Source: an uncultured Spirochaetota bacterium | GTDB lineage: Bacteria > Spirochaetota > B62-G9 > DRHN01 | NCBI GenBank assembly: GCA_964521865.1 | Contig: CAZFTJ010000005.1 | Coordinates: 7,613 to 71,612, forward strand | Reading direction: 5' to 3' | DNA: 64,000 nt | Shown: piece by piece, positions 10,826 through 62,790 of the stretch | Layout: every line of letters starts with the position of its first letter | Position numbering within the stretch: the stretch's first letter is position 1 | Made by a program: the position numbers and the translations under genes | Notes under the pieces: model-generated | Told to the model about the DNA's origin: nothing | What the model saw: only the letters and a program-made list of their open reading frames with translations | Database searches by the model: none

Positions 10826-10894
10826 ACCATTTTCCCCGTAATAGTTATTTGTCTTGTCTCACATGAAGACCATCCCGCATATTTCCGATGTGAA

Positions 10895-10932
10895 TAATTA
10901 TTTAACCGGTTACGTAAGCGGTTAAATAATTA
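10895..10932. promoter_or_regulatory. 38-bp near-perfect palindrome (TAATTATTTAACCG-gTTACGTAAg-CGGTTAAATAATTA); candidate operator upstream of the AT-rich minus-strand operon
   Basis: Read directly: 14-bp perfect inverted arms around the self-complementary core TTACGTAA; lies 70-110 bp upstream of the DegT start at 10825. Confidence 0.5.
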
Positions 10933-35830: not shown

Positions 35831-37192
35831 TCAGTAGGAATAGCTGCTCCCGCCGATAAACTCCCTTAACAGGGATGTGCCGGGCACCACATTCTCATCG
35901 CTCCAATCCGGAAACTCTCCGAACATTTCAATCACCCGCTGGGCCCGTGCGAGCGCATCCGACTTTTCAGGGTCATTTTTGAACTCCTCGATGAAACCGG
36001 GAAAAAATCCGCCGAGCCTGTGCTTCATCATGGGAAGCTCATACGGAAGAAAACTGTTGAGGATGTAATGGGCCTTTGTAATGCGTGAAATGATGTACCT
36101 CATTTCAGAGCGACGCACATAGTGCCAGTGCGTTATGGTCTGCTGAGGACTGTAGTTTCGAAACTGCATATCCCGCACCATTCTGCGAAGCATTCTGATA
36201 TCGGCCCATCGTATGAACCGTCCCTCTTTGTTTTTTATTTGCGACAGTGTTTCAATATACAGGTTGAACTTCTTTTCCTCCGGTATATCACCGGTCATAT
36301 CCTCGAACATGCCGTGCAGAGAATCGATGAGAAGTATCTCTTTTTCCCCGAGCGAAAGAGTGCCCGAGACGCCTTCCCTGTTGCCCGTTTTGAAGTTATA
36401 GTAGGGAACCTGTACGGTTTTTCCCGCAAGAAGCACTTTCAGATGCTCGTTGATAAGCGCGAGGTCCAGAGCCTGCGGTGTTTCGTAGTCGTAATCGCCG
36501 ACCATGTCCTGCGGCTGATCCTTCAGATCGAAGAAGTAATGATCCACATTGAGGGTAACGAGGTTGTACCCGAGCTTTTGCAGTTCTTTTTCTATTTTTA
36601 TCGTGGTTGTCGTCTTGCCGGACGAAGAGGGACCGGACACGATGATGATTTTGATGTCGTCTATCCTGTTTTCAATGAGCCTGACTGCATCTTCAAGCTC
36701 ATCCTCATAAAAATTCTCGGATACTGTGACAAGCTCACCGAACCTGTTCTTCTCGATAAAGTCGCCGATCTGGTTCAGCCGGACACAATGGTGATCTATT
36801 CCCCAGGAAAGAGCGTACCACAGTTTCCTGTAGGGAATGTTATCGGAAGAGTATGTCAGGCTCTCCCTTCCGGCCCGTTTGAGGGCATGCTCGTACCGGT
36901 ATATTATGTAGGCCTTTGCCGTTTTTGCATGGCCCCGTTCAATGAGCGATTTTTCGACGAGGTCCTGCACCTCCTCGACGGTCGGGTAGCTCTGAGGGTA
37001 ATCGGCCGACTCGAGTCTGGTCATAACATCGTCGGTCACCTTTTCAGCAGTTGCCCTATCGCGTCCGCCGACGGCAATCGCTGCCTGGAGAACGGCAAGT
37101 GTAATTTTTTCGCGATTGAAGGGAACAAGGCTTCCGTCCCGTTTAATTATCTTATCGATCACGAGATTCTCCTCCGCCGTCCGGATAGGCAA
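35831..37192 (-). CDS. ATP-cone domain fused to a uridine-kinase/phosphoribulokinase-family P-loop kinase domain
   Basis: N-terminal VIKRDGSLVPFNREKITLAVLQA (ATP-cone as in NrdR/NrdA); central IVSGPSSSGKTTTT...NVDHYF (PRK/Udk-like Walker A and substrate region); 453 aa. Confidence 0.6.
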   Translation of the reverse strand: MPIRTAEENLVIDKIIKRDGSLVPFNREKITLAVLQAAIAVGGRDRATAEKVTDDVMTRLESADYPQSYPTVEEVQDLVEKSLIERGHAKTAKAYIIYRYEHALKRAGRESLTYSSDNIPYRKLWYALSWGIDHHCVRLNQIGDFIEKNRFGELVTVSENFYEDELEDAVRLIENRIDDIKIIIVSGPSSSGKTTTTIKIEKELQKLGYNLVTLNVDHYFFDLKDQPQDMVGDYDYETPQALDLALINEHLKVLLAGKTVQVPYYNFKTGNREGVSGTLSLGEKEILLIDSLHGMFEDMTGDIPEEKKFNLYIETLSQIKNKEGRFIRWADIRMLRRMVRDMQFRNYSPQQTITHWHYVRRSEMRYIISRITKAHYILNSFLPYELPMMKHRLGGFFPGFIEEFKNDPEKSDALARAQRVIEMFGEFPDWSDENVVPGTSLLREFIGGSSYSY

Positions 37193-46798: not shown

Positions 46799-46947
46799 GT
46801 GAATACAAAAAGCCGCATGTTCCGGCACAATACCCTCTCTCATAGACGGTTTAACTCCGCGCCGCCGACCTGCTTTTGCCGCGCTCGCCGGAAAAGAGGG
46901 CCCGGACGGCTACCCTCCGACACTCCGGGCAATTCTTAAAATTATTA

Positions 46948-46975
46948 TTGACATACTTCATGTAATTTGTAAAAT
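46948..46975 (+). promoter_or_regulatory. sigma70-like promoter TTGACA-16-TAAAAT about 180 nt upstream of the lamin-tail lipoprotein gene
   Basis: Read directly; followed by a 180-nt leader with two short hairpins (ATGCCGC/GCGGCAT, GGGC/GCCC). Confidence 0.4.
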
Positions 46976-47156
46976 AAAGTTCTCTTTTGAAATTTTTTCC
47001 TCCATTATTTTGTTTATATATAATGCCGCCGCAAAGCGGCATGTTCTACGCGACACGTAAGCGGGGCTATGCCCGTACGGTTTCCATACAGAACTGTCTC
47101 CATGCACACAGAGTAGGTGCGGTCGCGGGATGAAAATCCTCTGAGTAACGGCATAG

Positions 47157-48608
47157 ATGCAGGAGTGCACGTCGATGAAAGCGATACTCCGATACATCTT
47201 ACTCGTCGTTCTATACCTCTCTCTTTGCGGGTCGGGGTGCACAAAGATCGACACTCCCATCGGAGACGGAACATCCGACGAATCAAAGGCACGCACTCCG
47301 TCCGGGCATCTTGAAATAATCGCCGATAAAACCGAGATTCTCGATACCGAGCCGCTTTTGCTGGAAGCCCAAGGAGGTTCCGGTATCGTGGTTTGGCGCT
47401 GTGAAACGGGTTTCGGCAGTTTTCAGCCCGATTCGGGAGACGAGGTGCTGTTCATACCCTCCGACACAACGGGAGATCGATCGACACAAGTAACCGCTGA
47501 GGACGAAGATGCCAAAACAGCCTCTTTAACGATTTCAATTATCGATGAAGGAGCCCCTCCCCGGTCGGGTGATATCCTCATCAACGAAATCGCGTGGGCC
47601 GGCACCCTCACCAGCTCATACGACGAGTACATTGAAATCGTAAACCGGGCCGGCCGGCCCTTCTACCTCAAAGGCTGGAGCATCGAAAACGCTGCCGGCC
47701 GGGGCGTACCTCTTGTTTTTTCCGGCAGAATTGATGCGGATTCGGTGTTTCTCATAGCAAATTACGGCTCGGACAGCGGAAAAACAGCCATCGGCTGTCC
47801 TGTTCACTGCATATCCTCCTCCCTTTCGCTGTCCAACTCATCTTTGGGCCCGTTCATTCTCACAGATGCCGGGGGTGGTGTTCTGGATGCCGTCGGTAAC
47901 GGCGATGCACCGTTATACGGAATAAACACGTCGGAGCGAAGGGCCTCCATGTCGCGGCACACCGATTCCAACACCATCAGCTGGGACGAATCGTCATGGT
48001 ACACGTCGGGGGAGTCCGTCAACCTCAGCGACGGCAGTCTGGGCTCTCCCGGTGCACAGAACGGGGATATGCCGTTTCTATCAGGTCCCCTCGATGAGGA
48101 TGCTCTCGGCATAATCACGGAGTTTTCGATCGATGCCAATGACGAGCTGGGTGAGGACTGGGTCGAGGTCTACATCACCAAAAGCGGTTCTTTGAAGAAT
48201 ATCATGATAACCGATCTCGACGGCGACGACAGTACGATTACGAACGGCGGGGAGGTGCAGGTATTTAAAGGAGACTGTATACTGGTTGTCTGGAATGCCG
48301 AATATACCGAACATTTCCAGCAGGACAACCGGTTCTATACACCCGATTCGAATCCAACCGGCACCAAGGACCAGATCGTACTCATGTGCACAGGTTCGTT
48401 TATCGACGGCGTATGCTACTATTCGGATGATTCGGCAGGCGATGCGCGCTTCGGCGGCGACAAGGAAACAATGACGGCTGCCGGCTGGACAGGCGATCCG
48501 GTATTCGGAAAGCATGCTTCGCGCAGGACGGATACCGCCGAAGGATACATCTTCGGGCTCAGCGCAGACAGCTGGGATACGGAAACGGCGCCATCACCCG
48601 GATGGTGA
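47157..48608 (+). CDS. secreted lipoprotein with two lamin-tail-domain (LTD)-like modules
   Basis: Signal/lipobox LSLCGSGC; LTD-like blocks GDILINEIAW..DEYIEIVNRAGRPFYLKGWSI and GIITEFSID..EDWVEVYITKSG. Confidence 0.6.
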   Translation: MQECTSMKAILRYILLVVLYLSLCGSGCTKIDTPIGDGTSDESKARTPSGHLEIIADKTEILDTEPLLLEAQGGSGIVVWRCETGFGSFQPDSGDEVLFIPSDTTGDRSTQVTAEDEDAKTASLTISIIDEGAPPRSGDILINEIAWAGTLTSSYDEYIEIVNRAGRPFYLKGWSIENAAGRGVPLVFSGRIDADSVFLIANYGSDSGKTAIGCPVHCISSSLSLSNSSLGPFILTDAGGGVLDAVGNGDAPLYGINTSERRASMSRHTDSNTISWDESSWYTSGESVNLSDGSLGSPGAQNGDMPFLSGPLDEDALGIITEFSIDANDELGEDWVEVYITKSGSLKNIMITDLDGDDSTITNGGEVQVFKGDCILVVWNAEYTEHFQQDNRFYTPDSNPTGTKDQIVLMCTGSFIDGVCYYSDDSAGDARFGGDKETMTAAGWTGDPVFGKHASRRTDTAEGYIFGLSADSWDTETAPSPGW

Positions 48609-48631
48609 TGAGAGGCACTCGAACCTTCTAA

Positions 48632-51013
48632 TTGCCGTGTGCTTGTCGGTTTCCGAAAGAAAAGAACAGGGAAGGGATACCTATCTCCATTATGGGAAGA
48701 GAAAAAACAAACCTATCCGGCCCCGGATCGAATGCAGAGGATCCGACTGGAAACGAAAACCGGTACAGAAAGCTTGTTGAACATTCACTGCAGGGAATAA
48801 TTGTGGTGCAGGATTTTCACATAGTGTATTCCAATGCAGCCTTTGAAAGGATGTCGGGATATACATTCGGCGAGCTGCTTCGTCTTCAACCCGAAGAGGT
48901 TCGAGAAATGGTGCATCCGGACGATCGGAAATTGATCTGGGGACGCTTTCGCGAACGGCTGAGAGGCAAACAGGTGCCGCCGCATTACGAATTTCGGGGA
49001 TTTCGAAAAGACCGTACCGTGCGCTGGTTTGATTTGTATGCGGACCGTATCGAATACCGCGGAAGGCCGGCCATTCAGGGCGCACTGGTAGACATTACGG
49101 AAAGAAAAGAGGCGGAAAATGCGCTTCTTGCTGAAAAAGCGTACCTGGAGGAGCTATTCGAAAATGCTCCGGAAGCGATTGTTCTGGTGGACAACGACAG
49201 CCGGGCAGTCAGGGTAAACCGTGAATTCACGAGAACTTTCGGGTATACGCAGGAGGAAATCGGAGGTCGGTGCGTCGACGATCTACTGGCCCCCGGAGAG
49301 CTTCATAGAGAAGCCGTTTCCATTACAAACCGCATTAAAAAGGGGGAGCGAATAATCGTTGAAACCGCGCGCATGCGAAAGGACAAAACGCGCGTCTATA
49401 TATCCTTATCCGGCTTGCCGATCAAAGTCGAAGGCAGACAACTAGCCGTGTACGGAATATATCGCGATATTTCAGAGCGGAAACGCGCCGAGGAAGAAAC
49501 GAAAAAGTCGGAAGAAAAGTACCGTATCCTGGTGGAAAACGCTACGGATGCAATCATCATCCTCCAGGACGATCTCATCAGGTTTCACAATCAAAAAACC
49601 GCCGCACTTACCGGCTACTCGAAAGAAGAACTGGAGTCGACTCGCTTTTTCCAGTTTATTCATCCGGAAGACAGGGACGCCATGATTCAAAGATACAACA
49701 AAACGTTAAAAGGAGAACGCACACCCGCACCGTTTTCTTTCAGAGCAATACATAAAAGCGGTGCCATACTATGGGAAGAAATCAATTCGATTCAGATACT
49801 GTGGGAAGACCATCCTGCCGTACTCTGTTTTATCAGAGATATTACCGGAGAAAAGAAGCTCAGAGACCAGCTCCAGCACGCGCAGAAGATGGAGGCGGTC
49901 GGCACCCTTGCCGGCGGGATTGCGCATGACTTCAACAATCTTCTCCAGGGGATTCTCGGCTATGCCGATCTTCTGCTCTTCAAGAAAGAGGCGGACGACC
50001 CGACTCGCAGGGGGCTCGAACAGATACGAAGCGCCGCCCAGAGAGCGGCCGAGCTCACACAGCGGCTTCTCACATTCAGCCGCAAGGTCGAGAGCAAGAT
50101 GAGACCGATCAATCTCAACAACAGCGTCAACCGCATTCATTCCCTTATTAAAAGAACCATTCCAAAAATGATCGAAATCAAGCTCAACCTGACAGACAGG
50201 CTCCGAACGGTCAATGCAGACCCGGCGCAGGTGGAGCAGGTTGTCATGAACCTGGTCGTAAACGCAAAGGACGCCATGCCGGAGGGAGGCGTGCTCACAA
50301 TCACAACCCAGAACAAGACGCTCGATGAAAAATTCTGTCGAGGGCACCTGGGCGCGGTTCCCGGCGAGCACGTGCTTGTGGGCATCTCCGATACGGGCCA
50401 CGGGATGGACAGCGAAACCCTTGCCCATATATTCGAGCCCTTTTACACCACCAAGGAGAAGGGCAGAGGAACCGGACTGGGGCTTGCCATGGTATACGGT
50501 ATTGTTGCAAATCACAACGGCTATATCGAATGCAAAAGCAAACCGGACAGGGGCACCAGTTTCAATATGTATTTCCCCGTTTTTAACGGCATCGCCGAAT
50601 ACACAGAAGAGGTTAATTCGGCATCATCACAGGGCGGCTACGAGACCATTCTACTGGTCGACGATGAAGAGTTTATTAGGAATCTCGGAAGGCAGATGCT
50701 GACAGGCTTCGGATATACGGTACTGACCGCTTCCGACGGCACGGAGGCGCTCGAGATCTACGGGAAAAAACATCGGAACATAGATCTCATTATCCTCGAT
50801 TTGACTATGCCCGGAATGAGCGGCAGCCGGTGTCTGAGAGAGCTTTTAAAAATAAATCCCGGGGCAAAGGTCATTATTGCGAGCGGCTATGCTGAAAACG
50901 GACCTGAAATGGAGACCATAACCGCACAGACCAGGGGATTCATCGGCAAGCCGTTCAAGATAAGCGCGATACTGGGTCTGATTCGAAAAGTTCTGGAAGA
51001 GGAAACGCCATAG
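48632..51013 (+). CDS. PAS-domain hybrid sensor histidine kinase with a C-terminal receiver domain
   Basis: Three PAS-like segments; HisKA H-box AHDFNNLLQGILGY; HATPase N/G boxes (NLVVNAKDAMPEGG, GTGLGLAMVYG); REC (ILLVDDEE..LDLTMPGMSG); possible alternative start at 48692. Confidence 0.85.
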   Translation: MPCACRFPKEKNREGIPISIMGREKTNLSGPGSNAEDPTGNENRYRKLVEHSLQGIIVVQDFHIVYSNAAFERMSGYTFGELLRLQPEEVREMVHPDDRKLIWGRFRERLRGKQVPPHYEFRGFRKDRTVRWFDLYADRIEYRGRPAIQGALVDITERKEAENALLAEKAYLEELFENAPEAIVLVDNDSRAVRVNREFTRTFGYTQEEIGGRCVDDLLAPGELHREAVSITNRIKKGERIIVETARMRKDKTRVYISLSGLPIKVEGRQLAVYGIYRDISERKRAEEETKKSEEKYRILVENATDAIIILQDDLIRFHNQKTAALTGYSKEELESTRFFQFIHPEDRDAMIQRYNKTLKGERTPAPFSFRAIHKSGAILWEEINSIQILWEDHPAVLCFIRDITGEKKLRDQLQHAQKMEAVGTLAGGIAHDFNNLLQGILGYADLLLFKKEADDPTRRGLEQIRSAAQRAAELTQRLLTFSRKVESKMRPINLNNSVNRIHSLIKRTIPKMIEIKLNLTDRLRTVNADPAQVEQVVMNLVVNAKDAMPEGGVLTITTQNKTLDEKFCRGHLGAVPGEHVLVGISDTGHGMDSETLAHIFEPFYTTKEKGRGTGLGLAMVYGIVANHNGYIECKSKPDRGTSFNMYFPVFNGIAEYTEEVNSASSQGGYETILLVDDEEFIRNLGRQMLTGFGYTVLTASDGTEALEIYGKKHRNIDLIILDLTMPGMSGSRCLRELLKINPGAKVIIASGYAENGPEMETITAQTRGFIGKPFKISAILGLIRKVLEEETP

Positions 51014-51036
51014 ACCGTTATACCGGTGTATGGCGT

Positions 51037-52458
51037 CTAGATCATGTCGAAAGGAATCTGATAGGTGCTCAACAGATTGTAGTACCGATCGAAGGCGTAT
51101 ACGGTAAGGGTGTGCGATCCTGTCGCAAGAGATGCTGTACTTACATAGTAATCCCATTTCCTCGAGCCGAAATCCATCGTATCGACGTCCTGCAGCACAT
51201 CCGAGTCGATCTGTATCTGAATATACTTCACCGCATCTTCGTCGAAATATCCCCACACGGGAAAATCGGATGATTGCGATGAATTGTAAAATAAAGGATC
51301 GATATACGCATATGCTCCGTTCGCTTCCATGAAATCGACGCTGTAGTAACTGCTTACAGTAAAAAAATCATCCAGTGCATCAACGGTAATTATATGAGAA
51401 CCAACGGATGAAAGACTCGATGTTTGGATACCGAAATCCCAGGTCCCGTCGCTGCTGTTAAGGGCGGCATAGCCGTAGGATATTCCATCGATCAAGACTT
51501 CAACATACGACACCGAGCCGGGATTGTACTTCCCCGAGATGTCGAGAAAGTCCAGAATGTACTGATTCTCATAGGGCGAGGCGATGTACACGGAAGGCTC
51601 GCTCTTACCGTCCCTCTCCACAAACCCGATGGTGTAGCTGTCGAATACCTCTCCGGACTGATCGAGCGCCTTTACTCTGAGGCCGTGGGTTTGGTCGGGA
51701 AAGTCAAATGTATTTATCCTGGCATACCACGTATCGCCCGTGTCGTTCATGGTCACGGAGCCCGGGATGGGTGCTCCATCGACCTCGACCTCCAGGGTCG
51801 TATTCCAGTCGCCGAACAGGCCGCCTGCAACGGTAAAAAACTGTGCGTCGATATAATCACCATCGTCGGGCGATGCGATGTACACCGCATGCCACTCAAA
51901 CTTCTGCCCCTGATTGCCGAAACCGAGATAAATTCTCTCATCGTGGTCATTCAGGTCGACAGTATCCCAGTGGGGATCGACAAAATACTGGGTCACCCCG
52001 TTTGAATCCCTGTACGGCGTTACAGTCGAATCCGCAAAATACCTGTCGTTGTACAGGACATACGGCTCTCTGAGATCAGGCATATCGTTTTTATTCAACG
52101 AATCGTGGAAGGCAAGCACGATGTAGCTGCCGGTGGCAAGCGTCATTGAGAGGGAGCCGGTCGGAATATAGGCCTCCCTGACCTCCCTCACCGGACCGCC
52201 GTCCGGATTGTCCGTATCTTGAATTATATTTCCGTTCTCATCGAGAGGCATGATCCAGAACACGATCGGGCTGCCGACAGACACAGCGGACCGACCCCAG
52301 TAGCTGTAATCGATGGTCAACGCATAGTAGTCGCTCGTTCCCGAGCCGTTGCCTCCGCCGCCGAATAGAGCGCCGACGAATCCGCATGAGGAGATGCCGA
52401 ACAGTAAACCGCCCGAAGCAAAAAGCAGAATAGTAAGTCTCCAAAACCCTCTCTTCAT
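51037..52458 (-). CDS. secreted lipoprotein, unknown function (repetitive beta-rich)
   Basis: Signal/lipobox LLFGISSCG; 473 aa with no catalytic motif recognised. Confidence 0.45.
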   Translation of the reverse strand: MKRGFWRLTILLFASGGLLFGISSCGFVGALFGGGGNGSGTSDYYALTIDYSYWGRSAVSVGSPIVFWIMPLDENGNIIQDTDNPDGGPVREVREAYIPTGSLSMTLATGSYIVLAFHDSLNKNDMPDLREPYVLYNDRYFADSTVTPYRDSNGVTQYFVDPHWDTVDLNDHDERIYLGFGNQGQKFEWHAVYIASPDDGDYIDAQFFTVAGGLFGDWNTTLEVEVDGAPIPGSVTMNDTGDTWYARINTFDFPDQTHGLRVKALDQSGEVFDSYTIGFVERDGKSEPSVYIASPYENQYILDFLDISGKYNPGSVSYVEVLIDGISYGYAALNSSDGTWDFGIQTSSLSSVGSHIITVDALDDFFTVSSYYSVDFMEANGAYAYIDPLFYNSSQSSDFPVWGYFDEDAVKYIQIQIDSDVLQDVDTMDFGSRKWDYYVSTASLATGSHTLTVYAFDRYYNLLSTYQIPFDMI

Positions 52459-52564
52459 TACGGCACCCCGAGATACCCCCGTCAGGATTCGAGGTATAAT
52501 TTCAAAGCAATCGTATATCTAAAGTATAGTGCGAATCCGGCACTTTTCAATGCACCGCCGAAAT

Positions 52565-53974
52565 TTATTTCTGTCGGGACTTTCGTGCCCGAATCTGTTT
52601 TTCGAGAATGTTCTCGACACGCTTGATCTCGCCGGCAACCCTCTTCAAAGCGGTACCGCCTGACACGTTGTGACGGTTGACCGAGCGGATGTAGTCGAAC
52701 AGCCCGTATACGTCCTTTTCGAAGGCCGTATCGAAGCTCTTATACTGCTCGAGAGAAAGGTCTCTAAGGTCCACCTTACGCTCCATGGCAGACCTGACGA
52801 TCTCCCCCACAATACGATGGGCATCCCGAAACGGAACACCCCTGCCCACGAGGTATTCGGCAATATCCGTTGCAAACAGGGTCCCATTCGATTTCTGAAG
52901 CGCTTCTTCAATACGTTCCGGGTTCACGGAAAGACCCTCAATCACATCCGTCATCACCGCAATACATTGCATGGCGGTATCTATGGAATCGAACAGGCCC
53001 TCCTTGTCCTCCTGAAAATCCCGGTTATAGGTATAGGGCGTGCCCTTCATGAGGGTGAGGATCCAAACCAGGTTTCCGATGACGCGGCCGGATTTGCCGC
53101 GTATAAGCTCGAGGGAGTCGGGGTTTTTCTTCTGCGGCAGAAGCGAAGAGGTCGTGGTCAGATCATCCGGAAGGTCATAAAAACCGAACTCCTCCGATGA
53201 GTATATGATTATATCCTCAGCCATGCGGGAGAGCGTGACGCCGATCAGAACACATATAAATTCGAATTCCATGATGAAATCACGCGTTGAAACCGCATCA
53301 ATCGAGTTCTGCGCCGGGGTATCAAAGGGAAGCTCCTGCAAAAGCTGATCCCTGTCCATACCGATCGAAGAGCCGACAGCGGCGCCCGATCCGAGCGGGA
53401 GCACCCTGAGCCTCTTCTGAAAATCCTTTATTCTCTCCCGATCCCGCGCCAGGGCATGGTAGTAGGCGAGGAAGAGATGGGCCAGGCTTGCGGGCTGAGC
53501 CTTTCTGAGGTGTGTGTATATCGGAACGATCGTCGAGAGGTGCTCCTTCGCCCTTTCAACGAGGGCCAGGGAAAGAAACAGCATCTTTTCATCGATTGAA
53601 GAGCACTCCTTAATGAGGTGCATACGCTCATCGAGCACGATCTGTTCGTTCCTGCTCCGGCCCGTATGAAGCTTGTAGGCGGTTTTTCCGATTTTTTCGA
53701 AAAGCCGCCGCTCGATGCTCATATGTATGTCTTCATCTTCGACCCTGAAATCAAATACTCCGGTCGCGATCTCCTCCTCAACCGAACAAAGACCGTCGAC
53801 AATCTTCCCGTACTCCTCCCTGTCGAGTATGCCCCTTTTTTCAAGCATCTTCGCCCAGGCGATCGAACCCCTGACGTCTTCGCGGTACAGACGTTTATCA
53901 AAACCGATGGATGCATTCATGCCGGCAAACACGCTGCCGGGCGGTTTATTGAGCCTTCCGTCCCGTATGGCCAC
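52565..53974 (-). CDS. argH: argininosuccinate lyase
   Basis: 469 aa; fumarate-lyase signature GRSRNEQ; ASL N-terminal consensus. Confidence 0.9.
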   Translation of the reverse strand: MAIRDGRLNKPPGSVFAGMNASIGFDKRLYREDVRGSIAWAKMLEKRGILDREEYGKIVDGLCSVEEEIATGVFDFRVEDEDIHMSIERRLFEKIGKTAYKLHTGRSRNEQIVLDERMHLIKECSSIDEKMLFLSLALVERAKEHLSTIVPIYTHLRKAQPASLAHLFLAYYHALARDRERIKDFQKRLRVLPLGSGAAVGSSIGMDRDQLLQELPFDTPAQNSIDAVSTRDFIMEFEFICVLIGVTLSRMAEDIIIYSSEEFGFYDLPDDLTTTSSLLPQKKNPDSLELIRGKSGRVIGNLVWILTLMKGTPYTYNRDFQEDKEGLFDSIDTAMQCIAVMTDVIEGLSVNPERIEEALQKSNGTLFATDIAEYLVGRGVPFRDAHRIVGEIVRSAMERKVDLRDLSLEQYKSFDTAFEKDVYGLFDYIRSVNRHNVSGGTALKRVAGEIKRVENILEKQIRARKSRQK

Positions 53975-54090
53975 GGTTTCCTCCCCATGATGCGGATATC
54001 CCGAATACTGCCCGGAAATATGCTGCAGGATACTTCGCGCCGACGGTATGCGCTCCGGTGTACAGTTTATACAATTGCACCCTGGACATA

Positions 54091-55008
54091 TTAAAAACCC
54101 GTGTGCTCGTAATCCTCGACATCCGCCTCCGATAGAATCATGGTGCCGTTTCCCGAGCTGGTAAAGACCTCGATAAGGAGGGAGTTCTGGATAGTTCCGT
54201 CGAGTATGTGAACCCTCTTCACCCCGTTTTCAACCGCACGGATGCACTCCTTCACCTTGGGCACCATACCTCCGCGTATTATCCCCCGTTCGATCAGACG
54301 AAGCGCATCCTTCTGCGATACGTACGATATCCTGCTGTCCGGGTCGTTGATGTCCCTGAGAATGCCGCCGACGTTGGTCATGGTAATATACTTGAACGCA
54401 CCCACTGCGACAGCAATACCGGATGCGACCGAGTCGGCGTTTATATTGAGTATATGTCCCATGCCGTCGTCCGCAAGGGAAGAGATCACGGGAATATAAC
54501 CCCTGTCCAGAAGCACGGTAAGCAACTCCGTGTTTACGCTCACGACATCGCCCACATGCCCGAAATCCACATTGTTGATTTCACCCGTCTCTTCATCGAC
54601 GTATGAAACAGGCTCTCTCCGCTTTGCGATAATCACGTCCCCGTCGATTCCGGAGAGACCGACCGATTTTGCACCGTGCTTTCTGAGTATGGTGAGTATC
54701 TCGTGATTTATCTTTCCGGCAAACACCATCTTCGTGACTTCGAGCGTCTCCTCATCGGTAACCCTTCTCCCCTCCACAATTTTTGGAGATATACCCAGCT
54801 TTTTCGAAAGCTCGGTTGCCTGCGGGCCTCCCCCGTGAATCAGAATAACCCGCACACCGATCTGATAGAGAAGGGAAACATCCTGCGCAATATCATCGAT
54901 AACCGCCTGGTTCTGTATCAGCTCTCCTCCCAGTTTGATGACGAATATCCGGTTTTTATACCTGCGTATATAGGGAAGAGCCTGTTTGAGAATACCGATA
55001 TCCTGCAT
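54091..55008 (-). CDS. argB: acetylglutamate kinase
   Basis: Amino-acid-kinase blocks IFVIKLGGE, HGGGPQ; start moved to MQDIGILK (RBS GAGGT) from the track start at 55119; no fused GNAT domain. Confidence 0.9.
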   Translation of the reverse strand: MQDIGILKQALPYIRRYKNRIFVIKLGGELIQNQAVIDDIAQDVSLLYQIGVRVILIHGGGPQATELSKKLGISPKIVEGRRVTDEETLEVTKMVFAGKINHEILTILRKHGAKSVGLSGIDGDVIIAKRREPVSYVDEETGEINNVDFGHVGDVVSVNTELLTVLLDRGYIPVISSLADDGMGHILNINADSVASGIAVAVGAFKYITMTNVGGILRDINDPDSRISYVSQKDALRLIERGIIRGGMVPKVKECIRAVENGVKRVHILDGTIQNSLLIEVFTSSGNGTMILSEADVEDYEHTGF

Positions 55009-55133
55009 AGCGTACCTCGTGATCCCCGATGTGACGAAGCCCCGGGCTGCCGGCGACCCGGGCATCGGCGCATTCTCCACGGTTGAGAATCGACGCCGTA
55101 ACCGCACGCATACGCTCATTGCGTACCATGCCC

Positions 55134-56144
55134 TTAACCACCCCGGTTGCCGAGGATGGCATAGAGCACCGATTTTTGGGCGTGCAGTCTGTTTTCCGCC
55201 TCATCGTATACGATCGATGCGGGGCTGTCTATCACAGAATCCGACACCACGACATTCCGCCGCACCGGAAGGCAGTGCATGAAAGATGCATTGTCCGTAA
55301 GCGCCATCTTTTTATCATCAACGATCCAGTGCTTCAGTTTTTTCCTGTGCTCTTTCTCCTTTTCCCTGTTCCCGTAAAAGGCAAGGCTTCCCCAGCTCTT
55401 TGCGTACACAACCCTGGAACCTCTATACCCCTCCTCAATAGTATCGGTTACCGAGAACCTGCCGCCCGCATTTTTACAAAATTTTTCGGCATTGTGCATT
55501 ATTTCGGGGTCCAGATCGTATCCCGAAGGCCGCACAAAGCGTACATCCATGCCGAACAGAGCGCATGCGGTCAGTATCGAATTGGGGACGGCCATCGGAA
55601 GCGGATTCGGATGATACGCCCAGGTAATTGTCACCGGAAATCCGGTAAGGTTTCTGCCGTGTCTCTCCATAATGGTCATGATATCAGCAAGCGCCTGGTT
55701 GGGATGGTAGAGCGAGGATTCCATGTTGATAATCGGAACTCCTGCATACTTTTCGAAGGCGCCGAGTATGGGGTCTTTTCTGTCGGTTTCCCAGGAATCT
55801 CCCTTCGGGAATGCGCGGATTCCGATTGCGTCCCCGTAGGTTCCGAGAACCTTCGCCGCATCCTTTATGTGCTCGGCATTGGGGCCGTCCATGACGACTC
55901 CTTCCTCTGTTTCGAGCTTCCACGTATCTTCCCCTGCATTGAGGGTTACCACGTTCCCGCCAAGCTCCTGCATCGCAAGCTCGAACGAGGTCCTCGTGCG
56001 CAGGGATGGGTTGAAAAAGAGAAGGATGAGGTTTTTCCCGGGAAGCCCGGGCCGGAACTCCCGGTGTTTCATCTTGATGCCGTTTTCGATCAGCTCTGCG
56101 ATCTGTTCGGCTGTGTACCGGGAAAGCGAAATAAAGTGTTGCAT
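55134..56144 (-). CDS. argF': N-acyl-L-ornithine carbamoyltransferase of the argF' type (AOTCase/SOTCase family), probably acetylornithine-specific
   Basis: SLRTRTSFE (carbamoyl-phosphate binding), HPNQ, HCLP; the ornithine-specific SMG loop is replaced by VYAKSWGSLAF; about 55 % identity by eye to the Xanthomonas AOTCase sequence as recalled. Confidence 0.75.
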   Translation of the reverse strand: MQHFISLSRYTAEQIAELIENGIKMKHREFRPGLPGKNLILLFFNPSLRTRTSFELAMQELGGNVVTLNAGEDTWKLETEEGVVMDGPNAEHIKDAAKVLGTYGDAIGIRAFPKGDSWETDRKDPILGAFEKYAGVPIINMESSLYHPNQALADIMTIMERHGRNLTGFPVTITWAYHPNPLPMAVPNSILTACALFGMDVRFVRPSGYDLDPEIMHNAEKFCKNAGGRFSVTDTIEEGYRGSRVVYAKSWGSLAFYGNREKEKEHRKKLKHWIVDDKKMALTDNASFMHCLPVRRNVVVSDSVIDSPASIVYDEAENRLHAQKSVLYAILGNRGG

Positions 56145-56231
56145 GGTATAAAAACTCCACTTTTGGAATGCAGAAGGCGTGTGTGCACACATCGTTTAAA
56201 ATGTGCATGTGCACAGCGTACAAGCGCCTCC

Positions 56232-57395
56232 CTACAGCGAACGGAGAGCCCGGAGAAATACATCCACATCCGCCTCTTCGAGCACCAGCGGCGGAAGCAG
56301 CCTCATAACATTCTTCTGGGAAGATGTACCGGTGATAACGCCTCTTTCGAGCAGGAGGTCGCGCACCTCTTTCGCATCCCTATCGAGCTCTATCCCGATG
56401 AGGAGGCCTTTCCCCTTCACCCCCCTGACGCCGGGCAGCTTCTCCGCTTCTTCCCGTATGTACGCGCCGATTCCGGCAGCCTTCTCCACGAGACCGTTCT
56501 TTCTGATCACGTCGATATTCGCCGAAAGCGCCGCACATGCAACGGGCCCGCCCCCGAAAGTGGATCCGTGCTCGCCGTGATGTATTGTTTTCGATATATG
56601 CTCTCCGATAAGAACCGCCCCCATGGGGATGCCCCCTGCAATACCCTTTGCCGTGGTTATTATATCCGGAACAATACCCCACGAATCGCCGAAAAACCAG
56701 CTTCCGGTTCTTCCGAGCGCTGTCTGCACTTCATCGAAAATGAGAACGGCTCCCGTTTCACCGCATATCTCCCTGAGCTTTCCGTAATACTCCTCATCCG
56801 CAATCGAAACTCCGGCCATGGATTGTATCGGTTCGAGAATAACGCCTGCGGTCCGGGAGGAAAGAGCTTTCTCAAAGGCGGGTATATCCCCAAAGGGCAC
56901 GAAGCGAAAACTCTCGATAAGCGGGGAAAACATATCCCTGTATTTTCCGAGGGCCGTCGCACTGAGCGCACCGATGGTCCTTCCGTGAAATCCGCCCAGC
57001 ATGGCGATGATCTCCGGCTTGCCGCTGAACCTGCGTGCGATTTTCAGCGCCGTTTCGTTCGCCTCGGCCCCCGAGTTGCAGAAAAACACCTTGTCCATCG
57101 GCTTCGGCGAAACCTCTACAATCGCCCGGGCCGCCCGGGCCCGCACCGGCAGGTATACGACATTCGAGTAGAAGAGAAGCTGTTCGGCCTGCGTTTTCAC
57201 CGCCCTGACAACCTCGGGATGACAGTGGCCTGTCAGCGCCACCGCGTGCCCGCCGTAGAGATCGAGGTATTTTTTCCCATCCGTATCGTACACATATACG
57301 CCCTCGCCTCGTTCGAGGGCTATGGGCAGTTTTGCATAGGTGTCGAGCTGGTACCGATCTTCCTGTTTTCTCACAGCTTCGAAATTTTCACTCAT
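56232..57395 (-). CDS. argD: acetylornithine aminotransferase
   Basis: Class III aminotransferase blocks; PLP-lysine region (TTAKGIAGG); 387 aa. Confidence 0.9.
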   Translation of the reverse strand: MSENFEAVRKQEDRYQLDTYAKLPIALERGEGVYVYDTDGKKYLDLYGGHAVALTGHCHPEVVRAVKTQAEQLLFYSNVVYLPVRARAARAIVEVSPKPMDKVFFCNSGAEANETALKIARRFSGKPEIIAMLGGFHGRTIGALSATALGKYRDMFSPLIESFRFVPFGDIPAFEKALSSRTAGVILEPIQSMAGVSIADEEYYGKLREICGETGAVLIFDEVQTALGRTGSWFFGDSWGIVPDIITTAKGIAGGIPMGAVLIGEHISKTIHHGEHGSTFGGGPVACAALSANIDVIRKNGLVEKAAGIGAYIREEAEKLPGVRGVKGKGLLIGIELDRDAKEVRDLLLERGVITGTSSQKNVMRLLPPLVLEEADVDVFLRALRSL

Positions 57396-57455
57396 ACCCT
57401 TTTATCCGTTCCCGTTATAGAACTCCGGAATCCAAAACAGGCCTGCGCCCAGCCG

Positions 57456-58508
57456 TCAGGGGCGCTGTCCCGGAAACTGGAGCCCCTCATCCTCGTCGAA
57501 TCCGAACATGATGTTCATGTTCTGTACGGCCTGACCGCCCGCCCCTCGCACCAGATTGTCAATTGCGCTCATGGTTACAATAAAATTGCTCCTGCAGGCA
57601 TACGATACCTCGACGTAGTTGGTGCCTGCAATCGGATTGATTTCGGGAGATCCTTCAACGACTCGTATGAATCTTTCATCCCCGTAACAGTCCATAAATG
57701 TATCCCGCAGCCGGTCCGGGCCTATCCTGTCGTTGTACACGGTCGCAGTTGTAAAAATGCCCCTGACGAACGGTCCGGACTGAGGCACCATCCCTATCTC
57801 GTAGTCCCAGCTTATGAACGTATCCCTGAAAAACTGCTCGATTTCAGGCATATGCTGATGCTCGAGAATTTTATACGCTTTGAAATTGGCCGCCCTGATC
57901 GGATGGTGCGTCACCTCTTTCGGCAGTTCGCCGGATCCCGAAGAACCGGTAACGGCAACAACACTGACGTCTCTCGTTACCGCACTCACCGTAAAGAGGG
58001 GATACAGCGCAAAGATAATACCCGTTGCAAAACACCCCGGATTGGCAATATACCGCGCCCTGCGCACCGTATCCCTGTTGAGCTCCGGAAGCCCGTACAC
58101 GAATTCGCCCAGCAGATGCGTTGCACTGTGGTCCTTGTTGTAGTACTGCTTGTATATATGGGGGTTGCTCAGCCTGAAATCCCCGCTCAAATCGATTATT
58201 CTCGCCTTCGGCATGTGCTTGATGATATCGGGCACGATACGCATTGAGGTCCCGTGCGGCGTTGCGAGGAACACAATATCCATGTCGGGCGTCAGATTCT
58301 CGATATCGGGCTCAATGAATCCCATATCCGTGACGCCGGTGAGAAATCTGTTTATCGAAGATATCTTCTTTCCCGCGTGGCGCCTGGAGGTGACAAAAAC
58401 GAGATTGATCCGTGGATGGAAGAGAAGGAGCTTTACCAGCTCCGCACCTCCGTATCCTGCGCCGCCGATAATACCGGCGTTGATCTTTTTCTTCGCCTTG
58501 AACAGCAT
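57456..58508 (-). CDS. argC: N-acetyl-gamma-glutamyl-phosphate reductase
   Basis: N-terminal GGAGYGG NAD motif; active-site Cys block ANPGCFATG; start moved to MLFKAKKK (RBS AGGGGAAGG) from the track start at 58556. Confidence 0.9.
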   Translation of the reverse strand: MLFKAKKKINAGIIGGAGYGGAELVKLLLFHPRINLVFVTSRRHAGKKISSINRFLTGVTDMGFIEPDIENLTPDMDIVFLATPHGTSMRIVPDIIKHMPKARIIDLSGDFRLSNPHIYKQYYNKDHSATHLLGEFVYGLPELNRDTVRRARYIANPGCFATGIIFALYPLFTVSAVTRDVSVVAVTGSSGSGELPKEVTHHPIRAANFKAYKILEHQHMPEIEQFFRDTFISWDYEIGMVPQSGPFVRGIFTTATVYNDRIGPDRLRDTFMDCYGDERFIRVVEGSPEINPIAGTNYVEVSYACRSNFIVTMSAIDNLVRGAGGQAVQNMNIMFGFDEDEGLQFPGQRP

Positions 58509-58552
58509 ACGCACCTTCCCCTGTTCACGTCCCAACGGCTTTTCACCTGTTC

Positions 58553-59575
58553 TCATCGCAATTGTATTACCCGGAGTATATACTCACCAAGCTCATGCTT
58601 CTGAGATACCGCGTTGATGCCCTCCATATTGAGGGAATCGTGTATGTAATCGATACCGACGCTGTTGTCCGTCACCGGTCCGCTTATAAGATGAACCGGC
58701 ATAGAGAGCTCCTTCATCAATTGCACCGCACCCCACGCACCGACCGGATCGAGTGCGCACACAACGCTGCACACAGTTGCGTCGCGAAGCTCCCTGTCCG
58801 AGAAATAATTCAGCACGCCGTAATCACCGAGAAGACCGTCTCCGAGCTCGACGATGACCACATCCGGGTTGTATCCCGCAAGCTCGTTGAGCGCCCCCTT
58901 TGCTATGAACGGCACCTCATCCGATTTAACGGTAGAGGGATACCCGAAGTCGAGAAATGAAAGCGCTTTGAGGGCGCCGTGGTCCTCCATATTCAGTACA
59001 TCCTTAAGCGCGGAAATACCGGATATCTTGGCGGAGCAGACGCTGTGTCCCTTCCAGGCAAGCTCCCTGGCGATGTTGGCGGCTGCAACCGTTTTACCGC
59101 TGTTCATGGATGTTCCGGAAACCGCGATAACCGGAATATGCGCCTTCAGATCGGTAGCCGTGCCGAGCGAAAAATCCCTGATATTCAGAGGTCCCTTATC
59201 ACCCGCAACGGTTCCGAGAACCTCGACCTTCAACGGCTGTCCGTACTCTCTGCTGTAAGAAACCGCCCTGCCGATTACCCCGCCCAGGTTCAGAATGTTG
59301 AGAACATCACCCCGTTTTACCCGATCGGGAAGCACTCCCACAAAACCCTGCAGAGCGCGTCTCTCGCCCAATACCCCGGCTATAACGTCGCCGCGGGATA
59401 TTTTCGCCATTCGCCCTGTAACGAGCTCGATCATGTCGTACACGCGCTTCTCTTCAAGGGCACGCACGACGCACACGTTCCCCCTCGTCCCATCGCTCTC
59501 CTCACGAACGTCCACCTCCCGCCCAAGCGGCACGTTTACCGTTACAGACGCCGGTTTGTCGATCGCTACTTTCAT
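58553..59575 (-). CDS. DUF1611-family P-loop protein (DgcN-like) embedded in the arginine operon
   Basis: N-terminal Rossmann-like half plus a C-terminal Walker-A-like VIAVSGTSMNSGKT; about 340 aa from MKVAIDKP (RBS GAGGAG); the track ORF extends to 59668. Confidence 0.5.
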   Translation of the reverse strand: MKVAIDKPASVTVNVPLGREVDVREESDGTRGNVCVVRALEEKRVYDMIELVTGRMAKISRGDVIAGVLGERRALQGFVGVLPDRVKRGDVLNILNLGGVIGRAVSYSREYGQPLKVEVLGTVAGDKGPLNIRDFSLGTATDLKAHIPVIAVSGTSMNSGKTVAAANIARELAWKGHSVCSAKISGISALKDVLNMEDHGALKALSFLDFGYPSTVKSDEVPFIAKGALNELAGYNPDVVIVELGDGLLGDYGVLNYFSDRELRDATVCSVVCALDPVGAWGAVQLMKELSMPVHLISGPVTDNSVGIDYIHDSLNMEGINAVSQKHELGEYILRVIQLR

Positions 59576-59804
59576 TCGCTGAGCCGCTCCTCTATCCTGT
59601 TTCCCGCCCTTCCGGCATAGTCCGCGCAGGGTATGATGCCCGTCGGGCATACGAACCGTCCGGTTCAATGCCGGAATACCCGCAGTAAAAGACTTTTAAT
59701 ACGTGCCCGCGGTAAAACCTTCAACACCCGGCAGTACCGGCCGTTTCACAACGAGCGACCGACGATTGGTGTATTCACGGGATTTTACGACCGGTAGTAT
59801 CGTC

Positions 59805-61010
59805 TCAGATGCCGCCGCCCCTGTGTACGATACTGTGGAGTTTTGAAGGTATACCGTAAATCCTGCTGAAGCCCTCCGCATCCCTGGAATCCCAGAGATT
59901 CTGCACTTCTCCGTACGTTGCAAGGTCTGCTCGCATGAGAGAATTGTCGCTTTTTACACCGGTAACGAGAAAACTCCCGCGATGCAGACGCACCCTGGCA
60001 GAACCGGTCACCCCGGACTGCGACGAGTCGATCATCGCCTCGAGATCCCTCATAACGGGATCGAAGTAGAGGCCCTCGTGAAGCAGGTCGCCGTAAACCT
60101 GGCCCATATGATCTTTCCAGAATCTCTGCCGCGCCGAAAGAACGAGTTTCTCGAGCTCACGGTGCGCGGAAATGAGCAGAATCGGCGCAGGCGCCTCGAA
60201 TACGATTCTTCCCTTTATACCGATAATTGTGTCGCCGATATGCACTCCCCGTCCGATTCCATAATTCCCGGCTGTTTCGTTGATGACGGCAATAATCTCT
60301 ATTCCCTCCATCTTTTTTCCATCGAGCGCAGCCGGAAGTCCTTTTTCAAAATCAATAACGACATCCGCCGGAGCTTCGGGAGTCTCCTCCGGGTTTTTGG
60401 TCTTTCTGAATACCGAATCCGGCGGAAACTGCCACGAATCGTGGGTTTCTCTGCCGCCGATAGTGGTGCCCCACAGTCCCTCATTTATGGAGTAATCTTT
60501 GACTTCGACATCGACTTCCACACCCCTGTCCTTCAGCCAGGAGGCCTCTTTTTCCCTGCTCCAGCCGAGGCTCCGGATCGGCGTGACGAGCTCTTTATCC
60601 GGTGCGAGCACCGAGAGCGCAACGTCGAAACGTATCTGATCGTTCCCGGCACCGGTCGAACCGTGGGCTACGGCCGATGCGCCTTCCTCCCGGGCGACTC
60701 TTGCAACTTCAATCGCCTGGGCGACTCGTTCAGCACCGACTGAAAGGGGGTATGAGTTGCCGCGCAGAGAATTACCCTTTATTATGTAGGAAACGAATTT
60801 ATCGTACACAAACTCCTTCCCGTCGACCGTACAGTGCTTCAGTGTGCCCAGGCTCTTCGATCTTCTTTCAATCTTTTTCAGCTCAGTGTCGCTGAATCCG
60901 CCGGTATCGACTGTAACGGATATCACGTCGAATCCTAGTTTCTCCTTCAAATACACGGCACAGAAGGTGGTATCGAGACCGCCTGAAAATGCAAGCACGA
61001 CCTTTTTCAC
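59805..61010 (-). CDS. argG: argininosuccinate synthase (GTG start)
   Basis: N-terminal PP-loop AFSGGLDTT; 401 aa; AAGGAG RBS 7 nt before the GTG. Confidence 0.95.
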   Translation of the reverse strand: MKKVVLAFSGGLDTTFCAVYLKEKLGFDVISVTVDTGGFSDTELKKIERRSKSLGTLKHCTVDGKEFVYDKFVSYIIKGNSLRGNSYPLSVGAERVAQAIEVARVAREEGASAVAHGSTGAGNDQIRFDVALSVLAPDKELVTPIRSLGWSREKEASWLKDRGVEVDVEVKDYSINEGLWGTTIGGRETHDSWQFPPDSVFRKTKNPEETPEAPADVVIDFEKGLPAALDGKKMEGIEIIAVINETAGNYGIGRGVHIGDTIIGIKGRIVFEAPAPILLISAHRELEKLVLSARQRFWKDHMGQVYGDLLHEGLYFDPVMRDLEAMIDSSQSGVTGSARVRLHRGSFLVTGVKSDNSLMRADLATYGEVQNLWDSRDAEGFSRIYGIPSKLHSIVHRGGGI

Positions 61011-61145
61011 ATCTCACTCCTTGCACGAAGCTTCGGATGGGGATCACGGATCGACGCCGCGGGAGTCGTACGCGACCGCCGGCCTGCGGCAACGACCCTG
61101 CCGCATTCTATCGGAGCCCTTCTGTTCGGCCGGCCGAACAAATAC

Positions 61146-61169
61146 GACAAAAGACCGATCGAATCGGTC
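61146..61169 (-). terminator. intrinsic terminator after the rqcH-like gene, upstream of the arg operon
   Basis: Stem GACCGAT/ATCGGTC (loop TCG) followed by TTTTGTCGTATTTGTT on the minus strand; a second perfect palindrome GTTCGGCCGGCCGAAC lies adjacent. Confidence 0.5.
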
Positions 61170-61224
61170 TCCCGGATGAAAAACAATGAACAATATTACT
61201 CAGACGGATAAATAAGAGTCAAGC

Positions 61225-62790
61225 TTATCTTTCGGTCCTCTTCGCTCCGCTCACCATAATCGGTATCTTCGAATCGACAAGCCGTGCAAGCGTCTTTTCT
61301 TCAAGCACGATGTATCTCGTCTTGTTGTGATGATAGATAACGTACCCCTGCTTCGTTCCCCTCGGTTTTTTCACATACTTGCAGTGCGTATACACCACCG
61401 TACCCGCTCCCTGACTCCGAGCCTTGCTGAAATAAAGGGCGAGGGTCGCCGCATCGAGTATATCCCTCTCCTGAAACTCGCCCTTTCTGTCATACCGCAG
61501 CACAACTGCGCTTCCAGTGCCGGCCTCGACATGAAACCAGAGGTCGTTTCCCCGCGCCTTTCTGACCGCAAGCTCCTCGTTCTCACGGGCATTTCTCCCG
61601 ACCAGGATGATTTTCCCCGTACCGGAGGTAAAACGAAGAATGCCCTTCCCCGCCTGCTCTTTTTTCAGCGATCTTCCGTCGGGACGATGAACCAGCGCCC
61701 TTTCCACACGTCTTCGAAAGCTTTCTTTAAAATAAAAATAGTCCGGTAAATCAAGCACATCGCGAGGAGATGTTCCCAGGGATATCTCTTTTTTTTCCGA
61801 CACCGTTTTTAAAAGTCTGTCAAGCGCACGAAGCCTTTCGTTTTCATAGGCTAATTTTTTTCCGAATATCTCCTTCTTTCTCCCGAGCTTCTTGTACCGC
61901 TCAAAATAACGGTGCATGTTTTCGGTGGGGCTTCGGGCCGGATCGAGCGCAATCTCGATATCGTTTCCCTTGAAATCCTTTAGCCTAACGGAGGAAGCGC
62001 CCCTTGGTATCCCGGAAAGGTTGTACTTCAAAAGCTCGCCGCATTTTCGTATCTTCTCACTGTTTTTTAGCTCCTCTTCTTCAAATAGCAGCTTGTCCAG
62101 GAGACGAGCGGCTTTCTTCCGCTCGGCCTTTACCACCTTCAGCACACCGCGCACAAGCGCCTCCGACCGCGATTTGAAGAACTGCGCGGAGAGCTCTCTG
62201 TTTAAAGCGCGTTCACCCGACAATGCAGCCTCTTTTCCTTGTGCACCGCCGCCCGCAGGCTGTTTTCGCGGCTCTATCTCTTTTAACGCGGAATCTTTTG
62301 CGCCGCTTCCCGGTATACGTTCTACGATCGACCGAAAATACGAGGCATCGGTCTTCGGTCTGTTTTTTAACAACCTGAAAACAATCTCACCTGCATCATT
62401 GAGTACCAGCACATCAAAAGCTCTGAAATCAAAAACCAGGTGACGGTCCATAGACGATCGCAGCCCGATCACCACACACTGTTCGACGCATCGCGGTCTT
62501 TCGAGCCTGAATCCATGCACAAGCGAGTGAAGCTGATGCACTGCAGGCGAGCTGTAGAGGTATGCACTGTGTATCTTTTCGAAGAGCAAATGAAAGCCCG
62601 TCTCACCCTTTTTCATGGAAACTGCCAGCACCAGCAGACCGTTTCGACCGTAGACATCGAATATCAATGTACAGGAATCGAGAAGCCTGATCTTTTGTAT
62701 CCTGCTTCCTGCCACTGCATCGGCCATCTCCAGGACAGCCCGGCGAATAAAATCTCCGGTCATCGCAACTCCCCGCCGGAACCCCTCCAT
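61225..62790 (-). CDS. rqcH: NFACT-family fibronectin-binding protein A-like / RqcH (Rqc2 homolog)
   Basis: NFACT-N-like N-terminus; coiled-coil middle; C-terminal NFACT-R/DUF814 block GNDLWFHVEAGTGSAVVL. Confidence 0.65.
   Translation of the reverse strand: MEGFRRGVAMTGDFIRRAVLEMADAVAGSRIQKIRLLDSCTLIFDVYGRNGLLVLAVSMKKGETGFHLLFEKIHSAYLYSSPAVHQLHSLVHGFRLERPRCVEQCVVIGLRSSMDRHLVFDFRAFDVLVLNDAGEIVFRLLKNRPKTDASYFRSIVERIPGSGAKDSALKEIEPRKQPAGGGAQGKEAALSGERALNRELSAQFFKSRSEALVRGVLKVVKAERKKAARLLDKLLFEEEELKNSEKIRKCGELLKYNLSGIPRGASSVRLKDFKGNDIEIALDPARSPTENMHRYFERYKKLGRKKEIFGKKLAYENERLRALDRLLKTVSEKKEISLGTSPRDVLDLPDYFYFKESFRRRVERALVHRPDGRSLKKEQAGKGILRFTSGTGKIILVGRNARENEELAVRKARGNDLWFHVEAGTGSAVVLRYDRKGEFQERDILDAATLALYFSKARSQGAGTVVYTHCKYVKKPRGTKQGYVIYHHNKTRYIVLEEKTLARLVDSKIPIMVSGAKRTER

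Follow-up and report, generated by a model that had tools for sequence, protein, structure and literature searches.

A candidate non-canonical N-acyl (succinyl)-L-glutamate synthase gene in the arginine operon of a Spirochaetota-like organism, very likely a member of a family already predicted from genomes

The window, that is, the whole 64-kb stretch of DNA analyzed, carries on its minus strand a compact arginine operon between 52.5 and 61.0 kb, and all the features given here with coordinates are located on this strand. The gene order argG, X, argC, argD, argF', argB and argH, already recognized in the original prediction, was confirmed from the gene coordinates and from Pfam and NCBIfam matches. 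The argG gene (59805-61010) codes for argininosuccinate synthase and was identified by Pfam and by the NCBIfam model TIGR00032 (341 bits). It is followed by gene X (58553-59575), which encodes a protein of 340 amino acids that is considered here, from its open reading frame, ribosome binding site and context, as a candidate non-canonical N-acyl (succinyl)-L-glutamate synthase. The ATG start codon of X is at position 59575, with a GGAG sequence about 10 nucleotides upstream, and the alignments with homologs also begin at this position. The stop codon of X overlaps by 4 bp (ATGA) the start of argC (57456-58556; TIGR01850, 353 bits), and this gene precedes argD (56232-57395; TIGR00707, 410 bits), coding for an N-acylornithine aminotransferase, and argF' (55134-56192), whose 352-residue product belongs to the AOTCase family of N-acylornithine carbamoyltransferases and matches the model NF003384 (N-acetylornithine carbamoyltransferase) with 445 bits. 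The last two genes are argB (54091-55119; TIGR00761, 233 bits), which encodes an N-acylglutamate kinase, and argH (52565-53974; TIGR00838, 534 bits), coding for a 469-residue argininosuccinate lyase with no fused acetyltransferase. As had been claimed, ArgB is a stand-alone protein, with the AA_kinase domain as its single domain and no fused GNAT.

A terminator-like hairpin with a 12-bp stem (61148-61174), found as a pattern match in a consensus scan, lies between argG and an upstream NFACT/RqcH-like gene and likely marks the 5' boundary of the operon. The 229-bp spacer between argG and X gave no Rfam match, and its folding energy was no better than that of shuffled sequences (z 0.4). A 1,054-codon antisense open reading frame that runs across argF', argD and argC was discarded as a gene candidate. 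When some 40 other large open reading frames of the window were scanned with Pfam, no argA, argJ, GNAT or M20 gene was revealed, in agreement with the earlier statement that argA and argJ are absent from it. Within the operon there is neither an ArgE-like gene nor a racemase or other D-glutamate-related gene.

The nature of the acyl group carried by the pathway intermediates was considered from the sequence of ArgF'. The operon had been described as being of the N-acetylornithine type, and this description agrees with the NCBIfam name of ArgF' and with its overall similarity, which is higher to the Xanthomonas N-acetylornithine carbamoyltransferase (330 bits) than to the Bacteroides succinyl enzyme (221 bits). 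The specificity residue, however, is of the succinyl type. Ala106 of ArgF' (codon 55875-55877) aligns with E92 of the Xanthomonas enzyme, the local sequence being DGPNAEH instead of the wild-type DGDTEEH in the alignment with PDB chains, and the best PDB match of ArgF' is 3L02, which is the E92A mutant of the Xanthomonas protein. According to Shi et al. 2007, as summarized in the GapMind 2026 preprint, the substitutions E92A/P/S/V switch AOTCase to N-succinylornithine. In 49 ArgF' proteins neighboring X homologs, this position is occupied by Thr (27), Ala (12), Val (6), Ser (2), Pro (1) or Gln (1), and by Glu in none of them (0/49), Thr, the commonest residue, being absent from that set of mutants. 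Both the Ala residue at the E92 position and the lack of Glu in these relatives suggest that the arginine pathway of this organism is probably N-succinyl and not N-acetyl.

Homologs of X are widespread. More than 1,978 of them were found in a large protein collection, all described as hypothetical proteins and devoid of Pfam domains, and a profile search against 1.84 billion representative proteins retrieved 1,817 clusters at E <= 1e-3, a number that corresponds to a wider superfamily with paralogs of X included, and 405 clusters at E <= 1e-30. When one genome per species was scanned, at least 583 of these genomes proved to contain a relative of X. Among the best 80 loci from these genomes, argG and/or argC are found within 400 bp of the X homolog and on the same strand in 76, which is the kind of co-occurrence within arginine operons that had been proposed as a check. 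The immediate upstream neighbor is argG in 67 of the 76 loci that extend far enough to include it, and the immediate downstream neighbor is argC in 65 of 76. The usual layout is argG-X-argC-argD-argF'-argB(-M20)-argH, and it is shared by Spirochaetota, Thermoanaerobaculia, Chloroflexota, Planctomycetota, Acidobacteriota, Gemmatimonadota, Elusimicrobiota, Wallbacteria, Sumerlaeota, Myxococcales MAGs, WOR-3 and one Woesearchaeota archaeon. An X homolog is also present in a MAG of the Peregrinibacteria (candidate phyla radiation), and the closest named relatives of the X protein of this window belong to Spirochaetota. In 20 of the 80 best loci an M20 ArgE-like gene accompanies the X homolog, and a role of X as a replacement of ArgE was rejected on this basis.

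A natural fusion protein, P0319, consists of a complete X homolog followed by an amino-acid-kinase domain of the ArgB/ArgA type. Its X portion shares 37% identity with X (E 3e-61), and the beginning of the beta domain is recovered when an in-frame Met further upstream is taken as the start. For the kinase portion, the Pfam AA_kinase score is 115 bits, the best NCBIfam model is argB and the identity to the ArgB protein of this window is 32% (E 7e-41). The 626-codon open reading frame lies inside contigs of four metagenome assemblies and is adjoined by an arginase-family gene. In classical ArgA and in the bifunctional ArgA/B proteins, an AA-kinase domain is also joined to an acylating (GNAT) domain, and the fusion thus ties X to the step adjacent to ArgB. 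The domain order of P0319 is the reverse of that in ArgA and ArgA/B, with X at the N-terminus; in addition, X has no GNAT domain, and separate genes encode X and ArgB in this window. Another apparent fusion, of X with ArgC (P0414), was discarded as a frameshift artefact on account of its long out-of-frame stretches rich in R, S and A.

The operons encode ArgB, ArgC, ArgD, ArgF', ArgG and ArgH, and an M20 ArgE-like protein in 20 of the 80 best loci, so that the first step is the sole step left without an enzyme. The role of X at this step is well supported by the gene context across phyla, by the elimination of the other steps and by the fusion to an ArgB-type domain. Very probably, X is the enzyme that makes N-acylglutamate, most likely N-succinylglutamate, in bacteria and archaea where the usual first-step enzyme is absent, and its assignment to this step of the arginine pathway, with all the possible chemistries taken together, deserves good confidence. 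The original prediction of a non-canonical N-acetylglutamate synthase holds as far as the position in the pathway is concerned, but its acetyl part is at odds with the Ala residue of ArgF' and with the absence of Glu in its relatives.

The domain architecture of X has been analyzed with AlphaFold2, an alignment of 30 homologs being used for the model (pLDDT 93.5, pTM 0.91). In this model, the first 135 residues or so are all-beta and residues from about 140 to 340 form an alpha/beta P-loop domain. The N-terminal domain (residues 1-138) is encoded by positions 59162-59575, and the C-terminal domain of the SIMIBI class, with the stop codon, by positions 58553-59158. The predicted all-beta structure contradicts the Rossmann-like N-terminal half that had been proposed, and no relative of the beta domain was found in the PDB. 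The Walker-A-like motif GTSMNSGKT noticed earlier is indeed present at residues G154-T162 (59090-59116), as read from the sequence, and is of the BioD type GT-x4-GKT. Among the 30 homologs, the invariant residues of the P-loop domain include G154, M157, G160, K161, T162, K183, D192, D198, E243, W281 and N321, and those of the beta domain include K7, S10, E50, R55, D63, R72 and N96.

The two-domain DUF1611 layout attributed to X was not sustained by the Pfam search, in which no match was obtained at E <= 0.01. The score with DUF1611_C (PF07755) was 15.6 bits, below the cut-off of 25, with an E value of 0.011 and 42 residues covered at the P-loop only; at E <= 10 it was equalled by the score with CbiA (16.3 bits, cut-off 25.4), and DUF1611_N (PF17396) gave no match even at this threshold. 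The NCBIfam search with X was empty, and neither Pfam nor NCBIfam gave a match to a GNAT domain or to an ArgJ fold. When X, the profile of its family and a Bacillus paralog were compared with PDB sequences, no DUF1611 chain was found; the profile misses by sequence the chains of DgcN (7XRJ), TM0796 (2G0T) and Ava_3511 (2OBN), to which X is 11-17% identical and whose N-terminal domain is DUF1611_N, in contrast to the all-beta domain of X. A remote structural similarity to DgcN was detected for the P-loop domain. On the basis of these results, X is not a two-domain DUF1611 protein: its P-loop half is distantly related to the DUF1611/BioD group, and the beta domain attached to it lacks a solved relative.

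DgcN is reportedly an acetyl-CoA-dependent D-glutamate N-acetyltransferase and is, to our knowledge, the only characterized DUF1611 enzyme. This activity, together with the higher similarity of ArgF' to the acetylornithine enzyme and its NCBIfam name, would be in line with X being an acetyl-CoA-dependent N-acetylglutamate synthase, or a supplier of N-acetyl-D/L-glutamate, in an N-acetylornithine-type pathway. This proposal is considered improbable: the specificity residue of ArgF' is Ala and Glu does not occur in any of the 49 relatives, the closest PDB chain is that of the E92A mutant, and the operon lacks a racemase or other D-glutamate-related gene. As compared with DgcN, X is predicted to act on L-glutamate instead of D-glutamate, probably with a succinyl instead of an acetyl donor, and in a biosynthetic instead of a catabolic process.

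The relationship of the P-loop domain with BioD bears on the choice of the acyl donor. The fold class of X includes ATP-dependent C-N ligases such as BioD, CobQ/CbiA, CTP synthase and formate-tetrahydrofolate ligase. The hhalign comparison of X with Escherichia coli BioD gave a weak match (E 5e-4, probability 31%, 58 columns), in which K161/T162, K183 and D198 of X are paired with K15/T16, K37 and D54 of BioD, the last one being a Mg ligand. The motif VELGDG of X (E243), matched by eye, resembles VEGAGG of BioD (E115), and K161, T162, K183, D192 and E243 are invariant even in the distant paralogs. These likenesses, along with the BioD-type Walker A motif, would suit an ATP-dependent amide ligase. 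Free succinate would be activated as succinyl phosphate, and an attack of the glutamate amino group on this intermediate would give N-succinylglutamate, with no CoA thioester involved. X would then represent a new class of enzyme, a two-domain ligase that works through an acyl phosphate and combines a BioD/CobQ-like P-loop domain with a novel beta domain, and a large number of bacteria and archaea, most of them uncultured, would begin to make arginine at no cost in acyl-CoA. Both the ligase chemistry, which is a serious alternative, and the new class are regarded as rather unlikely. The alignment with BioD is weak, and the ADP moiety of CoA could fill the same site, so that the conservation of the P-loop residues is compatible with either donor. 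Moreover, the only characterized relative acting on glutamate, DgcN, reportedly uses acetyl-CoA, and all the N-acylglutamate synthases known to date depend on acyl-CoA or on transacylation. X also differs from BioD and from the CobQ/CbiA-type ligases in that it does not reach the threshold of their Pfam models, has an additional 135-residue beta domain, would act on a different substrate and is found in a different genomic context. As to the residues themselves, X appears to keep the full BioD set for Mg-ATP, which is not obviously needed by an acyl-CoA transferase and counts against an acyl-CoA donor.

For the preferred chemistry, in which X is a succinyl-CoA-using N-succinyl-L-glutamate synthase and the first enzyme of an N-succinylated arginine pathway, the chances are judged to be about even. 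X would acylate the alpha-amino group of L-glutamate to form N-succinyl-L-glutamate (succinyl-CoA + L-glutamate -> N-succinyl-L-glutamate + CoA), and this product would then be processed by ArgB, ArgC, ArgD and ArgF'. By analogy with DgcN and with the known N-acylglutamate synthases, the most likely donor would be succinyl-CoA, the nucleotide part of which would be held by the C-terminal P-loop domain, with binding through K161/T162 and the invariant residues K183, D192/D198 and E243. Binding of the dicarboxylate substrates would fall to the family-specific beta domain, which carries the invariant residues R55, R72 and K7 and whose invariant arginines may plausibly serve as carboxylate binders. 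In this scheme X would take the place of ArgA, which is of the GNAT type, and also of BT3761, the GNAT enzyme of Bacteroidetes. What was observed is the gene context, distribution, fold, conserved residues, specificity residue of ArgF' and natural fusion; from these we infer which reaction X catalyzes, with which donor, and what its single residues do.

In the GapMind 2026 preprint, a protein family represented by Steroidobacter ACG33_RS14135 has been predicted from genomes to be an alternative N-succinylglutamate synthase. The arguments given there are the gene neighborhood, the mutual exclusion with ArgA homologs and residue 92 of ArgF'; the protein is called "a very distant homolog" of DgcN (7XRJ), its genes are reported to lie in arg operons in virtually all cases, and its homologs are reported never to co-occur with those of ArgA. 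The family of X has in common with that of ACG33_RS14135 that its members are hypothetical proteins nearly always encoded within arg operons, that the neighboring ArgF' has A, P, S, V or T (rarely Q), and not Glu, at position 92, that ArgE is present in some clusters only, and that there is a remote structural similarity to DgcN. It is very likely that X belongs to the ACG33_RS14135 family, a membership drawn from these shared properties and not from alignment. The claim of an undescribed route into arginine biosynthesis is consequently superseded, since such a synthase is already predicted in the preprint, where most of the conceptual novelty has been claimed, and X is best filed as a new member of a family already predicted from genomes. 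The present analysis goes beyond the preprint as regards the architecture of X, with its novel beta domain and the residues that resemble those of BioD, its fusion with an ArgB-type domain, the alternatives for the acyl donor and the existence of paralogs that lie apart from arginine operons.

An N-succinylglutamate synthase of the GNAT type, BT3761/ArgA2, occurs in Bacteroidetes and is needed for the arginine prototrophy of B. thetaiotaomicron (PMC8121099, PMC9026213). Like X, it is encoded in arg operons with a succinyl-type ArgF' and catalyzes the same pathway step that is predicted for X, but its GNAT fold is unrelated to the beta domain plus P-loop domain of X, which would be a non-orthologous replacement of BT3761/ArgA2. 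Metabolic reconstructions from genomes repeatedly show a gap at the step that opens arginine synthesis, and organisms that carry X, like this Spirochaetota-like bacterium, would be miscalled arginine auxotrophs. If confirmed, X would add a third unrelated fold to the GNAT and ArgJ types already recruited to make N-acylglutamate, and its function would be only the second one assigned near the DUF1611 fold.

Two-domain paralogs of X outside arginine operons were found on plasmids with a permissive tblastn search. The Priestia paralog matches the profile of the X family in hhalign with a probability of 99.9% (E 1e-33) over residues 28-320 of X. In Priestia and Bacillus, the plasmid paralogs are located in phosphonate-type clusters that include a PEP mutase, a split TPP decarboxylase and ATP-grasp enzymes, and they are adjoined by an OTC/ATC-like carbamoyltransferase and, in Priestia, also by an M20 peptidase. 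These neighbors keep on the table a carbamoyl-linked role for the fold, and with it another arginine-linked function of X, as a partner of the carbamoyltransferase, a substitute N-acylcitrulline deacylase at loci that lack a nearby M20 gene, or a non-catalytic regulator or assembly NTPase. The lack of an ArgE-like gene in the operon of this window would fit a deacylase, and the chemistry of BioD acts on a carbamate, which makes an activation of carbamate or carbamoyl groups conceivable. Such functions nevertheless have little probability. X and the M20 ArgE-like gene occur together in a quarter of the best 80 loci, a hydrolase does not fit a P-loop fold, carA adjoins the X homolog in one locus (L013), which indicates the usual source of carbamoyl phosphate there, and the fusion partner in P0319 is of the ArgB type and not a carbamoyltransferase. 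Furthermore, the set of an X-like protein, a carbamoyltransferase and an M20 peptidase in Priestia is also compatible with a logic in which a substrate is acylated, carbamoylated and deacylated. If the ligase chemistry were true of X, its paralogs would carry out analogous N-acylations in phosphonate natural-product pathways. Some of the plasmid paralogs are annotated by PGAP as "DUF1611 domain-containing protein", and distant paralogs score 16.5 and 22.6 bits with PF07755, values below its threshold.

A full-length homolog of X, the candidate N-acylglutamate synthase, was found naturally fused with an amino acid kinase domain of the ArgB/ArgA type in metagenomic loci L091 (8001-9881; JGI metagenome 3300040949) and L092-L094. 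The gene encoding this fusion stands alone, and an arginase-family gene is located divergently to it. Its annotated start cuts into the beta domain, which is restored by an in-frame Met about 45 codons further upstream.

Arg operons are not the only setting of these proteins, and two-domain X paralogs are also encoded in plasmids from Priestia megaterium (NZ_CP085446.1; 6911-7972 of locus L089), Bacillus paranthracis (NZ_CP116206.1; 6863-7891 of L090) and Sulfitobacter (NZ_CP040754.1; 6890-7987 of L088). In the Priestia and Bacillus plasmids the paralogs are located within phosphonate-type biosynthetic clusters that include genes for PEP mutase, a split TPP decarboxylase and ATP-grasp enzymes, and they are immediately adjacent to a gene coding for an OTC/ATC-like carbamoyltransferase, with an M20 peptidase gene also adjoining the paralog in Priestia. 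A further X homolog, from a Candidatus Peregrinibacteria MAG of the candidate phyla radiation (9261-10283 of L026), has no arg genes nearby in this locus, and its divergent neighbor is a RimK/LysX-like ATP-grasp gene. The gene order X-argC-argD-argB was observed in Chloroflexota and Gemmatimonadetes MAGs (L012, L025 and L032), and argF', the N-acylornithine carbamoyltransferase gene, was not detected between argD and argB with the query used. Either the carbamoyltransferase gene lies at another position, or its sequence has possibly diverged too far for that query.

In the relatives, argG and X overlap by 4 bp, whereas in the window they are separated by a 229-bp spacer (59576-59804). This spacer has no Rfam match, and its predicted folding was not better than that of shuffled sequence (z 0.4). 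The region 44510-62790 shows a wider synteny with loci L006/L007 of the WOR-3 bacterium SM1_77, which share an NFACT/RqcH-like gene, the arg operon, a lamin-tail-domain protein and a class II ribonucleotide reductase. The identity between the two X proteins is only 64%.

An open frame of 1,054 codons (55083-58247, plus strand) lies antisense to argF', argD and argC. These genes have a common reading frame, without TTA or CTA and with only one TCA, so that the codon-aligned antisense frame lacks stops; it is a codon-usage artefact and was rejected as a gene.

The GC content of positions 1-12000 is 37-40%, versus about 50% in the rest of the window. This region codes for an MttB-family methyltransferase (6813-8291), a URO-D-like protein (8351-9532), a DegT-type aminotransferase, an ABC sugar transporter and oxidoreductases, and directly downstream are located a SAM methyltransferase and a CdhD-like/ferredoxin protein (12634-14456). 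The low-GC region may be an acquired island for methylamine or quaternary-amine demethylation. Another gene of the window (35831-37192, minus strand) encodes an ATP-cone domain fused with a domain of the phosphoribulokinase/uridine kinase family.
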